From the IMG/VR virus record IMGVR_UViG_2869953405_000005: a stretch of DNA of 15,464 nt; one strand, written 5' to 3'. The position numbers and the translations under genes were made by a program. This DNA is from a virus. Its lineage: Duplodnaviria > Heunggongvirae > Uroviricota > Caudoviricetes. This document shows, one piece after another, positions 465 through 12,023 of the stretch (position 1 is the first letter of the stretch; each line of letters begins with the position of its first letter). Below the pieces are notes generated by a model. The model made no database searches, was not told where the DNA came from, and saw only the letters and a program-made list of their open reading frames with translations.

Positions 465-522
465 AGATATACCTCCAGTTAAGGATTAAATTTTATTTAC
501 AGTGCCGGGTAATGACTCCAAC

Positions 523-1026
523 TTATTGATAGTGTTTTATGTTCAGATAATGCCCGATGACTTTGTCATGCAGCTCCACCGATTTTGAGAACGACAGCGA
601 CTTCCGTCCCAGCCGTGCCAGGTGCTGCCTCAGATTCAGGTTATGCCGCTCAATTCGCTGCGTATATCGCTTGCTGATTACGTGCAGCTTTCCCTTCAGG
701 CGGGATTCATACAGCGGCCAGCCATCCGTCATCCATATCACCACGTCAAAGGGTGACAGCAGGCTCATAAGACGCCCCAGCGTCGCCATAGTGCGTTCAC
801 CGAATACGTGCGCAACAACCGTCTTCCGGAGACTGTCATACGCGTAAAACAGCCAGCGCTGGCGCGATTTAGCCCCGACATAGCCCCACTGTTCGTCCAT
901 TTCCGCGCAGACGATGACGTCACTGCCCGGCTGTATGCGCGAGGTTACCGACTGCGGCCTGAGTTTTTTAAGTGACGTAAAATCGTGTTGAGGCCAACGC
1001 CCATAATGCGTGCAGTTGCCCGGCAT
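523..1026 (-). CDS. insB: IS1 InsB transposase component
   Basis: 167-aa ORF matching recalled IS1 InsB; position inside IS1 downstream of insA. Confidence 0.9.
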
Positions 1027-1220
1027 CCAACGCCATTCATGGCCATATCAATGATTTTCTGGTGCGTACCGGGTTGAGAAGCGGTGTAAGTGAACTGCAG
1101 TTGCCATGTTTTACGGCAGTGAGAGCAGAGATAGCGCTGATGTCCGGCAGTGCTTTTGCCGTTACGCACCACCCCGTCAGTAGCTGAACAGGAGGGACAG
1201 CTGATAGAAACAGAAGCCAC
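945..1220 (-). CDS. insA: IS1 InsA
   Basis: 91-aa ORF with CxxC...CxxC zinc-finger N-terminus matching recalled IS1 InsA. Confidence 0.9.
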
Positions 1221-1347
1221 TGGAGCACCTCAAAAACACCATCATACACTAAATCAGTAAGTTGGCAGCATCACCACAGTGCTGAACTTAATTATTCAGA
1301 TTTTGGATTATGCTTTCTCTTCACGAAGTTCCGATTGTTAATTTGGC

Positions 1348-1737
1348 TCACAACAGCACCTTCTGAAAATTACCCTGATAGAAAGCCAGTACACGCTGCA
1401 TAGCTTCGCTCTTCCGGCACTCGCTACAGATTATGTTTTGACGCCTGTCGTAGCGGCGTATTTCTCCGTCTGGTAATGACCAGATAAGGTCAGGATCAAC
1501 CACAGATGGTTTCTTCAGATTTGCCCTTGAGAGTTTTTTGCGGGCGTTTTGCCAGTCCTTACGCGCCTGTTCAGACGGGAATAACCCGTAACCAGAGTTG
1601 TATACATCGCCACTGGCAACCAGCTCTCTGGCGAGAACACTCATCAGATATCTTGTCGCACCTGTCTTGGCTTCCAGTTGCCGCAACGTCTCGCGACCGC
1701 TCAGACGTACAAGTTCAACAACCTGCCCTTTAATTTT
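1348..1737 (-). pseudogene. 5'-truncated gene fragment (HTH-like region), cut by IS600
   Basis: Minus-strand frame is open from the IS600 boundary (1737) to the stop at 1348; the apparent start is only a TTG at 1686 with no RBS; product not recognised. Confidence 0.4.
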
Positions 1738-1801
1738 TGAGGTAGCCTGAGTTTAACGGACACTCCTTCCTGAAATAGAATGGCATCAGAAGGAGCTAAT
1801 A

Positions 1802-2104
1802 ATGAGCAGAAAAACCCAACGTTACTCTAAAGAGTTCAAAGCCGAAGCTGTCAGAACGGTTCCTGAAAATCAACTTTCGATCAGTGAAGGCGCTTCCCGA
1901 TTATCTCTTCCTGAAGGCACTTTAGGACAATGGGTTACCGCCGCCAGAAAAGGGCTCGGTACTCCTGGTTCCCGCACGGTGGCTGAACTGGAATCTGAAA
2001 TTCTGCAACTGCGTAAGGCGTTAAATGAAGCTCGCCTTGAGCGAGATATATTAAAAAAAGCAACAGCGTATTTTGCACAGGAGTCGCTGAAAAATACGCG
2101 TTAA
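1802..2104 (+). CDS. IS600 OrfA (IS3-family transposase, N-terminal HTH part)
   Basis: 100-aa ORF, identical to ORF 10048..10350; RBS GGAG before the ATG. Confidence 0.9.
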   Translation: MSRKTQRYSKEFKAEAVRTVPENQLSISEGASRLSLPEGTLGQWVTAARKGLGTPGSRTVAELESEILQLRKALNEARLERDILKKATAYFAQESLKNTR

Positions 2105-2139
2105 TCGAACAATGGCGACAACAATTTCCCATTGAAGCG

Positions 2140-8777: not shown

Positions 8778-9025
8778 GTTGATGTCCTTTCTGGTGTGAG
8801 AACCTTAAGGAAACAACATGGTGTAGCAGCCAGCCAGTTATTTCTCTGGCGTAAGCAATACCAGGAAGGAAGTCTTACTGCTGTCGCCGCCGGAGAACAG
8901 GTTGTTCCTGCCTCTGAACTTGCTGCCGCCATGAAGCAGATTAAAGAACTCCAGCGCCTGCTCGGCAAGAAAACGATGGAAAATGAACTCCTCAAAGAAG
9001 CCGTTGAATATGGACGGGCAAAAAA

Positions 9026-9931
9026 GTGGATAGCGCACGCGCCCTTATTGCCCGGGGATGGGGAGTAAGCTTAGTCAGCCGTTGTCTCCGGGTGTCGCGT
9101 GCGCAGTTGCACGTCATTCTCAGACGAACCGATGACTGGATGGATGGCCGCCGCAGTCGTCACACTGATGATACGGATGTGCTTCTCCGTATACACCATG
9201 TTATCGGAGAGCTGCCCACGTATGGTTATCGTCGGGTATGGGCGCTGCTTCGCAGACAGGCAGAACTTGATGGTATGCCTGCGATCAATGCCAAACGTGT
9301 TTACCGGATCATGCGCCAGAATGCGCTGTTGCTTGAGCGAAAACCTGCTGTACCGCCATCGAAACGGGCACATACAGGCAGAGTGGCCGTGAAAGAAAGC
9401 AATCAGCGATGGTGCTCTGACGGGTTCGAGTTCTGCTGTGATAACGGAGAGAGACTGCGTGTCACGTTCGCGCTGGACTGCTGTGATCGTGAGGCACTGC
9501 ACTGGGCGGTGACTACCGGCGGCTTCAACAGTGAAACAGTACAGGACGTCATGCTGGGAGCGGTGGAACGCCGCTTCGGCAACGATCTTCCGTCGTCTCC
9601 AGTGGAGTGGCTGACGGATAATGGTTCATGCTACCGGGCTAATGAAACACGCCAGTTCGCCCGGATGTTGGGACTTGAACCGAAGAACACGGCGGTGCGG
9701 AGTCCGGAGAGTAACGGAATAGCAGAGAGCTTCGTGAAAACGATAAAGCGTGACTACATCAGTATCATGCCCAAACCAGACGGGTTAACGGCAGCAAAGA
9801 ACCTTGCAGAGGCGTTCGAGCATTATAACGAATGGCATCCGCATAGTGCGCTGGGTTATCGCTCGCCACGGGAATATCTGCGGCAGCGGGCTTGTAATGG
9901 GTTAAGTGATAACAGATGTCTGGAAATATAG
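9026..9931 (+). CDS. insD: IS2 InsD (orfB, DDE transposase part)
   Basis: 301-aa ORF matching recalled IS2 InsD; overlaps the insC end at the A6G frameshift site. Confidence 0.9.
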
Positions 9932-10047
9932 GGGCAAATCCAGTCCGTTATAAAAACGCCGGTAAATCGTTCCCAGAGAACCGTGAGGTAGCCTGAGTTT
10001 AACGGACACTCCTTCCTGAAATAGAATGGCATCAGAAGGAGCTAATA

Positions 10048-10350
10048 ATGAGCAGAAAAACCCAACGTTACTCTAAAGAGTTCAAAGCCGAAGCTGTCAG
10101 AACGGTTCCTGAAAATCAACTTTCGATCAGTGAAGGCGCTTCCCGATTATCTCTTCCTGAAGGCACTTTAGGACAATGGGTTACCGCCGCCAGAAAAGGG
10201 CTCGGTACTCCTGGTTCCCGCACGGTGGCTGAACTGGAATCTGAAATTCTGCAACTGCGTAAGGCGTTAAATGAAGCTCGCCTTGAGCGAGATATATTAA
10301 AAAAAGCAACAGCGTATTTTGCACAGGAGTCGCTGAAAAATACGCGTTAA
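10048..10350 (+). CDS. IS600 OrfA (intact)
   Basis: Identical protein to ORF 1802..2104. Confidence 0.9.
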   Translation: MSRKTQRYSKEFKAEAVRTVPENQLSISEGASRLSLPEGTLGQWVTAARKGLGTPGSRTVAELESEILQLRKALNEARLERDILKKATAYFAQESLKNTR

Positions 10351-10512
10351 TCGAACAATGGCGACAACAATTTCCCATTGAAGCGATGTGTCAGGTATTT
10401 GGTGTATCCAGGAGCGGTTATTACAACTGGGTACAGCATGAACCCTCAGACAGAAAACAAAGTGATGAGCGGCTAAAACTGGAGATTAAGGTGGCACGGT
10501 AATGACTCCAAC

Positions 10513-11016
10513 TTATTGATAGTGTTTTATGTTCAGATAATGCCCGATGACTTTGTCATGCAGCTCCACCGATTTTGAGAACGACAGCGACTTCCGTCCC
10601 AGCCGTGCCAGGTGCTGCCTCAGATTCAGGTTATGCCGCTCAATTCGCTGCGTATATCGCTTGCTGATTACGTGCAGCTTTCCCTTCAGGCGGGATTCAT
10701 ACAGCGGCCAGCCATCCGTCATCCATATCACCACGTCAAAGGGTGACAGCAGGCTCATAAGACGCCCCAGCGTCGCCATAGTGCGTTCACCGAATACGTG
10801 CGCAACAACCGTCTTCCGGAGACTGTCATATGCGTAAAACAGCCAGCGCTGGCGCGATTTAGCCCCGACATAGCCCCACTGTTCGTCCATTTCCGCGCAG
10901 ACGATGACGTCACTGCCCGGCTGTATGCGCGAGGTTACCGACTGCGGCCTGAGTTTTTTAAGTGACGTAAAATCGTGTTGAGGCCAACGCCCATAATGCG
11001 TGCAGTTGCCCGGCAT
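10513..11016 (-). CDS. insB: IS1 InsB
   Basis: Identical protein to ORF 523..1026. Confidence 0.9.
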
Positions 11017-11210
11017 CCAACGCCATTCATGGCCATATCAATGATTTTCTGGTGCGTACCGGGTTGAGAAGCGGTGTAAGTGAACTGCAGTTGCCATGTT
11101 TTACGGCAGTGAGAGCAGAGATAGCGCTGATGTCCGGCAGTGCTTTTGCCGTTACGCACCACCCCGTCAGTAGCTGAACAGGAGGGACAGCTGATAGAAA
11201 CAGAAGCCAC
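10935..11210 (-). CDS. insA: IS1 InsA
   Basis: Identical protein to ORF 945..1220. Confidence 0.9.
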
Positions 11211-12023
11211 TGGAGCACCTCAAAAACACCAGCATACACTAAATCAGTAAGTTGGCAGCATCACCAGGTGGCACATATCCGCACTCGCGAAACATATGGA
11301 ACCCGGCGGCTCCAGACGGAGCTGGCAGAGAATGGCATCATTGTTGGTCGTGACCGACTGGCACGTCTTCGTAGGAGCTAAGGCTACGCTGTAAGCAGAA
11401 ACGCAAGTTCAGAGCGACTACGAACTCGAACCACAATCTGCCAGTTGCGCCAAATCTGCTGAACCAGACGTTCGCTCCTACAGCACCAAATCAGGTCTGG
11501 GTGGCGGACCTGACGTATGTTGCCACACAGGAGGGATGGTTGTACCTCGCTGGCATCAAAGATGTTTATACGTGCGAAATTGTCGGCTACGCCATGGGAG
11601 AGCGCATGACAAAAGAGCTGACAGGTAAAGCCCTGTTTATGGCGCTCAGGAGCCAGCGCCCACCTGCCGGGCTAATCCACCACTCTGATCGAGGTTCACA
11701 GTACTGCGCATACGATTACCGGGTCATACAGGAGCAGTCTGGTCTGAAAACATCAATGTCGCGTAAAGGTAACTGTTACGACAACGCTCCGATGGAAAGC
11801 TTCTGGGGAACGCTGAAAAATGAGAGCCTGAGCCACTATCGTTTTAATAACCGGGATGAAGCCATCTCAGTAATACGGGAATACATTGAGATTTTCTACA
11901 ATCGTCAGCGTCGTCACTCTCGTCTGGGGAATATCTCCCCGGCAGCCTTCAGGGAAAAATATCATCAGATGGCTGCTTAAAAAAAGAACAAATGGTAGTG
12001 TCCGCTATTGCCAGTACACCTCA

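Follow-up and report, generated by a model that had tools for sequence, protein, structure and literature searches.

The DNA stretch considered here (IMG/VR record IMGVR_UViG_2869953405_000005, Caudoviricetes; 15,464 nucleotides, referred to as the window) carries two copies of the insertion sequence (IS) IS600 and two copies of IS1, each pair in direct orientation around a block of prophage genes. This configuration raises the question whether the bracketed block is deleted or tandemly amplified by recombination between the copies, as a first-pass annotation of the sequence had proposed. Dispersed repeats in direct orientation are known to give rise to deletions or duplications and those in inverted orientation to inversions. 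The window corresponds to positions ~1,821,154–1,836,617 of the Shigella sonnei chromosome LR213449.1 (100% identity, including two private 1-bp deletions), and a search of the whole window against Escherichia coli genomes returned IS-driven matches only. Homologous recombination between IS600 copies is very probably the explanation for two natural variants of this locus: a deletion of the block in one S. sonnei strain and a proposed inversion in another, which would have produced the arrangement seen in the window. As part of the same explanation, the window is regarded as the heavily IS-eroded meeting point of two lambdoid prophage remnants in the S. sonnei chromosome.

The IS600 and IS1 copies

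Comparison of the window with itself by BLAST revealed three direct repeats, namely 508–1276 with 10498–11266 (769 bp, 99.74% identity), 1738–2251 with 9984–10497 (514 bp, 100%), and 2243–3001 with 11266–12023 (759 bp, 99.6%, one gap); inverted repeats were not found in this self-comparison. Repeats so long and so identical cannot have arisen by chance. The inner ends of the IS600 copies are 6,982 bp and those of the IS1 copies 9,222 bp apart, which bears out the near-identical direct pairs at about 7 kb and 9.2 kb described in the first-pass annotation. Two features had been overlooked there: the second IS1 copy is nested within the second IS600 copy, and the latter has a 1-bp deletion in orfB.

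The first copy, IS600-A (1738..3001, plus strand), is intact with 1264 bp (orfA 1802–2104, orfB 2140–2958) and shares 99.8% identity over its full length with the RefSeq "IS3-like element IS600." IS600-B spans 9984–12023 and is divided by IS1-B into a left part (9984..10497, plus strand, IS600 nt 1–514), which is 100% identical to IS600-A, and a right part (11266..12023, plus strand, IS600 nt 506–1264) with two mismatches and the 1-bp deletion. The homology of IS600-B is thereby broken into tracts of 514 and ~750 bp; when IS1 is spliced out, the copy is 99.6% to 100% identical to IS600-A. The IS600 products contain the Pfam domains HTH_Tnp_1 (orfA) and rve (orfB), and the element ends, TGAGGTAG... 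and ...ACACCTCA, are of the TG...CA form. Both IS1 copies are 768 bp long and lie on the minus strand, IS1-A at 508..1275 (insA 945–1220, insB 523–1026; recognized through homologous copies with Pfam InsA and DDE_Tnp_IS1 domains) and IS1-B at 10498..11265. They differ by two mismatches in 768 bp, at positions 841 and 1242, and their products InsA (91 amino acids) and InsB (167 amino acids) match Zn_ribbon_InsA and DDE_Tnp_IS1 in Pfam. On sequence grounds, the assignment of these elements to IS600 and IS1 is regarded as secure.

The target sites of the two families differ in their state of preservation. IS1-A is flanked by ACAGTGCCG (499–507) and ACAGTGCTG (1276–1284), which agree at eight of nine positions, and the sequences on its two sides are adjacent and uninterrupted in E. 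coli prophages. IS1-B lies between perfect 9-bp duplicates of AGGTGGCAC (10489–10497 and 11266–11274), its insertion site being IS600 nt 506–514. IS1 insertions give 9-bp or, occasionally, 8-bp duplications. Given the separate duplications of the two copies and the uninterrupted prophage sequence at the IS1-A site in E. coli, both are simple, independent insertions. A 3-bp target duplication, as expected around a simple IS600 insertion, is missing at IS600-A (TTT/GGG), at IS600-B (CCG/AGG), and at a third copy, IS600-C, in the prophage next to ompW. A recent IS600 insertion at another locus (L016) does carry such a duplication (GTG/GTG), so that IS600-A and IS600-B most likely bear the scars of later recombination; their missing duplications do not speak against an assignment to IS600.

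Direct IS copies around a cargo of iraM, transfer RNA (tRNA), and Q genes could also be the ends of a composite transposon (IS600–block–IS600 or IS1–...–IS1) that came in, or moves, as a whole by transposition. Transposons of this kind with IS1 in direct repeat are known, for example Tn9, and the two direct IS1 copies ~9 kb apart resemble this type. Unlike in the Tn9 type, no common target duplication surrounds the units (outer flanks TTT...AGG for IS600 and ACAGTGCCG...AGGTGGCAC for IS1), the IS1 copies with their separate duplications are independent insertions, and their adjacency would result from an inversion, the two being 676 kb apart in most genomes. Moreover, IS600-B is doubly defective, and the cargo genes still stand in the native prophage order known from IS-free E. 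coli prophages. A composite transposon is therefore extremely improbable, and was rejected because no duplication is shared around either IS–cargo–IS unit. Instead of a designed unit, the IS1 and IS600 pairs would represent independent insertions, whose long, near-identical direct repeats may serve as portable homology for the general (RecA-type) recombination of the host.

Deletion of the bracketed block in S. sonnei

Complete S. sonnei chromosomes were retrieved using IpaH2, Q, IraM, and the truncated DUF977 protein as anchors and typed by BLAST and by their junctions; ipaH2 lies outside the bracket and served as an anchor for the population comparison. In the majority order, a side with genes for a 203-amino acid protein, Dam, and a resolvase is followed by IS600-A, the block (esterase stub, iraM, tRNA genes, Q, RusA, and IS2 interrupted by an IS21-family element), IS600-B, and finally the tail-fibre genes and ipaH2. 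In one of the 24 ipaH2-anchored chromosomes, CP151334.1, precisely the 8,246 bp between the IS600 copies are missing. Here, a single IS600, interrupted by IS1, is bordered on the left by the A-type flank GCTGATTAG and on the right by the B-type flank AGGCCACTG; iraM, Q, and the IS2-IS21-RusA-tRNA block are absent. When the deletion was introduced in silico into a majority genome, the product aligned with CP151334.1 in one high-scoring segment pair (HSP) of 12,148 bp, compared with two pieces and 8,246 missing bp for the native genome. CP151334.1 keeps IS1-B as well as the B-type single nucleotide polymorphisms (SNPs) in the right part of its IS600, which positions the crossover left of IS600 nt 582, most likely in the 514-bp left tract, where the copies are 100% identical. 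In length, the sibling assembly CP151349.1 exceeds CP151334.1 by 8,339 bp, which fits the 8,246-bp unit.

These features are consistent with recombination of IS600-A with IS600-B, through an unequal or an intramolecular crossover, by which an 8.2-kb unit consisting of one IS600 and the iraM-tRNA-Q-RusA-IS2-IS21 DNA would be lost and one hybrid IS600 would stay behind, as seen in CP151334.1. The alternative of a frozen relic, in which the locus is effectively invariant and both the deletion in CP151334.1 and the unusual joint of LR213449.1 are artefacts of long-read assembly at repeats, draws on the occurrence of each variant in one assembly only, on the two private 1-bp indels of LR213449.1, which suggest an imperfect consensus, and on the majority order of all 33 iraM-anchored and all 24 DUF977-anchored contigs. 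We consider it unlikely, as the long reads used for complete genomes readily cover repeats of 1.3 to 2 kb, the joint of CP151334.1 has exactly the expected hybrid flanks with IS1-B retained, and its sibling is longer by about the length of the unit. Other polymorphisms also mark the locus as active: IS1-B is missing in about half of the sampled S. sonnei genomes, IS600-A contains an IS1 in strain 53G, and CP044151 combines an extra IS600 with a deletion.

The IS1 in IS600-A of 53G and CP044151 is located at IS600 nt ~1117–1126, and IS600-B has none in these genomes; this is a second, independent insertion of IS1 into IS600. In CP044151, the further IS600 lies within IS600-A and the deletion of ~3.4 kb reaches the Dam gene.

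Tandem amplification, the reciprocal outcome of a crossover between IS600-A and IS600-B, would be mechanistically possible but was not observed. Among ~20 displayed loci covering both IS600 copies, none had the tandem joint (left flank of B, IS600, right flank of A), and the gene tables of the 33 iraM-anchored and 29 Q-anchored contigs contain no second copy of the block, with the limit that finished assemblies rarely capture unstable duplications. Of the predicted deletion or amplification, the former thus has a natural example for the IS600 pair and the latter has none among these loci.

The arrangement of the window

The deletion of CP151334.1 sits in the majority chromosomal arrangement, which is not that of the window. 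In all other sampled S. sonnei genomes, positions 1–1737 of the window (DUF4014 gene, 70-amino acid open reading frame (ORF), IS1-A, and DUF977 fragment) are found elsewhere, beside ompW-yciCBA and linked through IS600-C to a different prophage remnant. The IS600-A of the window is a hybrid joint, its left flank being that of IS600-C in the ompW prophage and its right flank that of the majority IS600-A. In CP104423.1, IS600-C (plus strand, 1,859,364) and IS600-A (minus strand, 2,536,710) are inverted relative to each other and 676 kb apart. A simulated sequence of the left flank of IS600-C, IS600-A, and its right flank aligned with window positions 1–10497 in one HSP (99.94% identity). Furthermore, LR213449.1 carries the window at 1.82 Mb, where the ompW prophage natively resides in other strains, and the ruv-aspS-ipaH2 region on the right side of the window runs in the opposite direction compared with these strains. 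The simplest reading of this one joint and of the chromosomal position is an inversion between IS600-C and IS600-A, an event of the same type as the deletion with the inverted IS600 of the ompW prophage as partner.

The inversion would also have set IS1-A beside IS1-B in direct orientation. As it is strain-specific, the IS1 pair is direct and 9.2 kb apart only in this strain, compared with a distance of 676 kb in most genomes; repeat adjacency in a single reference strain can hence be peculiar to that strain. Look-ups of the exact proteins (the 112- and 128-amino acid DUF977 proteins, the 70-amino acid ORF, ORF117, and IraM) yielded no other carrier of the window arrangement, all S. sonnei matches being of the majority type. 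The recombinant junctions that had been predicted for the window, IS600 joining 1737 to 12024 and IS1 joining 507 to 11266, are arithmetically correct, with deletions of 8,246 and 9,990 bp, but can occur only in genomes like LR213449.1, of which none except the source was found.

The endpoints of both variants coincide exactly with pre-existing IS600 copies, and each joint retains a single full-length IS, which is the signature of homologous recombination. The alternative is a transposase-made rearrangement, either by intramolecular transposition of IS600 or IS1 or through IS3-family circles formed from the ends of two copies. In its favor, orfA and orfB are intact in IS600-A, insA and insB are intact in both IS1 copies, and the loss of target duplications is generally known as a signature of intramolecular transposition, too. 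However, both the CP151334.1 deletion and the proposed inversion end exactly at IS600 copies already present in other strains, and a single full-length IS without a new target site is what recombination between copies is expected to leave. Transposase activity is for these reasons a very unlikely source of the joints, which point to homologous recombination instead.

Several observations weigh against recombination between IS600 copies as the common explanation. The arrangement of the window is known from the single assembly LR213449.1, and the reciprocal joint of the inversion, GCTGATTAG–IS600–TCCATCACC (also written ...AGACTGGCTAAGCTGATTAG–IS600–TCCATCACCGAAAAAAATTG...), which would link the Dam/resolvase/203-amino acid side to the side with the 76-amino acid, hok, DUF968, and Q273 genes, was not retrieved for it. 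The deletion was likewise found in one genome only, in which a location of the block elsewhere or an assembly error by repeat collapse may still be conceived. IS600 has only six variable columns, too few informative SNPs for crossover mapping, which is uninformative except for the B-type right part in CP151334.1. The missing tandem joint and the dependence on RecA, which is assumed, have to be added.

Inversions and deletions that end in IS elements have been described in complete S. sonnei genomes and were read as IS-mediated homologous recombination (PMC12795559; PMC8072062). Among the variants in the accessible parts of these two reports, neither the 8.2-kb IS600–IS600 deletion at the ipaH2 island nor the 676-kb inversion between IS600-C and IS600-A is included; the former report tabulates lineage-conserved variants of >7 kb only. 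A literature search by accession for the two unusual assemblies returned nothing.

The ompW locus shows further changes. In three loci (L024, L044, and L051), the IS1-A locus is 420 bp longer and contains additional partial insA and insB calls, which suggests a partial IS1 duplication. In the ompW prophage of S. sonnei (L017, L023, L042, and related loci), the segment comprising the DUF977 fragment, the 70-amino acid ORF, and DUF4014 is inverted in place compared with E. coli, and the early region from int to DUF1627 is missing. Together with the lack of a duplication at IS600-C, the inverted segment and the lost early region indicate older IS600-mediated rearrangements at this site, too.

Gene content of the block and its surroundings

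The first-pass annotation had treated the bracketed segment as the late module of a prophage. The DNA between the IS600 copies (3002–9983, 6,982 bp) instead represents a nin/Q-tRNA-moron junction enlarged by 3.3 kb of IS2 and IS21-family DNA (3,349 bp, 48%). No stx, lysis, head, or tail genes were detected inside the bracket, where late genes have left no trace except a DUF1737/SASA (nanS-p-like) esterase gene that IS600-A has reduced to its 5' stub (2955..3143, minus strand; PF08410 on a product of 57–62 amino acids); the full gene in E. coli prophages encodes 617–658 amino acids. Judged from the sequence, the late genes are lost, and the surviving tail-fibre remnants sit outside IS600-B.

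Homology to IS-free E. coli prophages spans exactly positions 2999 to 6219 of the window and then stops. The iraM-carrying lambdoid prophages of E. coli (L036, L037, L041, and L055) have the same order of DUF968, RusA, Q, tRNA-Ile/Arg, ORF117, DUF3927, iraM, and DUF1737 esterase genes and share 95% to 98% identity with this part. They run on into holin, lysozyme, Rz, terminase, and tail genes, which are gone in the window, where IS600 occupies the breakpoints. Within the section 3144–4635, iraM (3389..3724, plus strand) lies in a patch of 39% G + C content, in a moron slot between the Q and tRNA genes and the esterase and lysis genes. Its product, an anti-adapter with PmrD fold, is identical to a protein named IraM in Shigella, matches PF11183, and is annotated accordingly by RefSeq in one of the E. 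coli prophages (L055). This layout recurs across many E. coli prophages, among them L022 and L028 in addition to the four named above. The section also includes a small DUF3927 ORF of 43 amino acids (4005..4136, minus strand; PF13064 gene call in L007 and related loci) and, downstream of the tRNA genes, a hypothetical ORF of 117 amino acids (ORF117; 4172..4525, minus strand) without a Pfam hit, whose exact protein is found at the equal position in E. coli prophages.

The next genes, all on the minus strand, encode tRNA-Arg (UCU; 4636..4712, predicted by ARAGORN), a tRNA with CAU anticodon (4813..4888), the antiterminator Q of 284 amino acids (4991..5845; Pfam Antiterm, E = 7e-55), and the Holliday-junction resolvase RusA (5842..6216; Pfam RusA, E = 1.8e-16). 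The CAU tRNA is termed Met by ARAGORN but is 100% identical to a RefSeq-annotated prophage tRNA-Ile and is listed here as tRNA-Ile of the lysidine type. IS2 (6594..9942, plus strand) is split: BLAST against an intact IS2 (from L042) placed its nt 1–159 at 6594–6753 and nt 203–1330 at 8814–9942, with nt 160–202 lost at the insertion of an IS21-family element. The latter (6754..8813, minus strand, boundaries approximate; istA 7605–8777, istB 6808–7608) shares 99% identity with an "IS21-like element" of E. coli JB2. Three levels of IS-in-IS nesting are thereby found within 5.5 kb. The section 6220–6593, with an ORF of 85 amino acids, and the 41 bp at 9943–9983 had no match in the reference prophages examined.

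We infer that the block is dispensable; none of its content is obviously essential, and a strain with the deletion exists, which supports this. Its loss removes iraM and two phage tRNA genes beside the effector gene ipaH2. Conceivably, the IS600-bracketed iraM-tRNA-Arg(UCU)-tRNA-Ile(CAU)-Q block might be a selectable copy-number module, whose reversible amplification or loss would tune RpoS stabilization via IraM or the supply of rare-codon tRNAs and so create adaptive heterogeneity analogous to the stx amplification in S. dysenteriae 1; we regard this as very improbable, the null expectation being neutral decay by deletion.

Insertion sequences reportedly flank the stx unit of S. dysenteriae 1. 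That region and the present locus are both defective lambdoid prophages riddled with IS elements including IS600, and in both a Q-proximal moron segment is prone to spontaneous deletion. In Stx phages, stx is located downstream of Q and the tRNA genes, the same slot in which iraM lies here. Direct repeats on both sides and a natural deletion allele with one hybrid IS, typical of an IS-flanked deletable unit of the stx type, were both found. Unlike in S. dysenteriae 1, the moron is iraM rather than stx, and a deletion allele but no amplification was found among the genomes. The precedent quoted in the first-pass annotation does exist: the title of McDonough & Butterton (1999, Mol Microbiol 34:1058), a report concerning stx in S. 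dysenteriae 1 and its tandem amplification and deletion, is cited among the references of PMC7819885, PMC6379469, and PMC11413625, and the contexts of its citation agree.

Mechanism and elements are already known, and the locus is an ordinary instance of IS-driven genome plasticity that opens no new mechanism or question, its significance beyond bookkeeping being small. It does offer a clean worked example in which three states, intact, IS600 × IS600 deletion, and IS600 × IS600 inversion, are legible in public genomes; short-read assemblies are unable to resolve them.

To the left of the block, the window begins with a DUF4014 family gene of the ompW-site lambdoid prophage (1..219, minus strand), which shares 100% identity with a DUF4014-annotated part of E. 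coli JB2 prophage DNA and adjoins ompW in other S. sonnei genomes. It is followed on the same strand by a hypothetical prophage gene for 70 amino acids (252..464), whose exact protein occurs in E. coli prophages and at the S. sonnei ompW locus, and, beyond IS1-A, by a DUF977 gene of which IS600 has left a 3' fragment (1348..1737; Pfam DUF977, E = 7.6e-21, profile positions 30–134 of 134). The full-length gene in E. coli encodes 140 amino acids.

To the right of IS600-B, a tail-fibre gene remnant (12024..13144, plus strand) has lost its 5' end at IS600-B; the corresponding S. flexneri island has intact tail genes. The two private 1-bp deletions of LR213449.1 are located in this pseudogene, at 12883 and 13039, and are possibly long-read consensus errors; they create a 367-amino acid tail-fibre allele, for which exact-protein look-up gave LR213449.1 as the only carrier. 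The window ends with ipaH2 (13713..15464, minus strand), which codes for a type III secretion system effector with NEL E3 ubiquitin ligase domain (Pfam NEL and LRR_TTSS) identical to AAZ87985.1, IpaH2 of S. sonnei. In the S. flexneri IpaHd locus (L053/L054), a near-identical ipaH follows intact lambda-like tail genes (J, Lom, and tail fibre), which shows what the S. sonnei island has lost; an IS600 is located between Lom and J, and the chromosomal site differs from that in S. sonnei.

Between the tail-fibre remnant and ipaH2 lies a gene similar to tail-fibre assembly genes (13156..13533, plus strand; Pfam DUF4376, E = 4.6e-18). Its region 13341–13583 contains 14 to 15 SNPs in ~250 bp in L008, L009, L011, and L014 and is near-identical elsewhere. 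This cluster resembles a patch acquired by gene conversion, with a paralogous tail-fibre assembly gene as donor.

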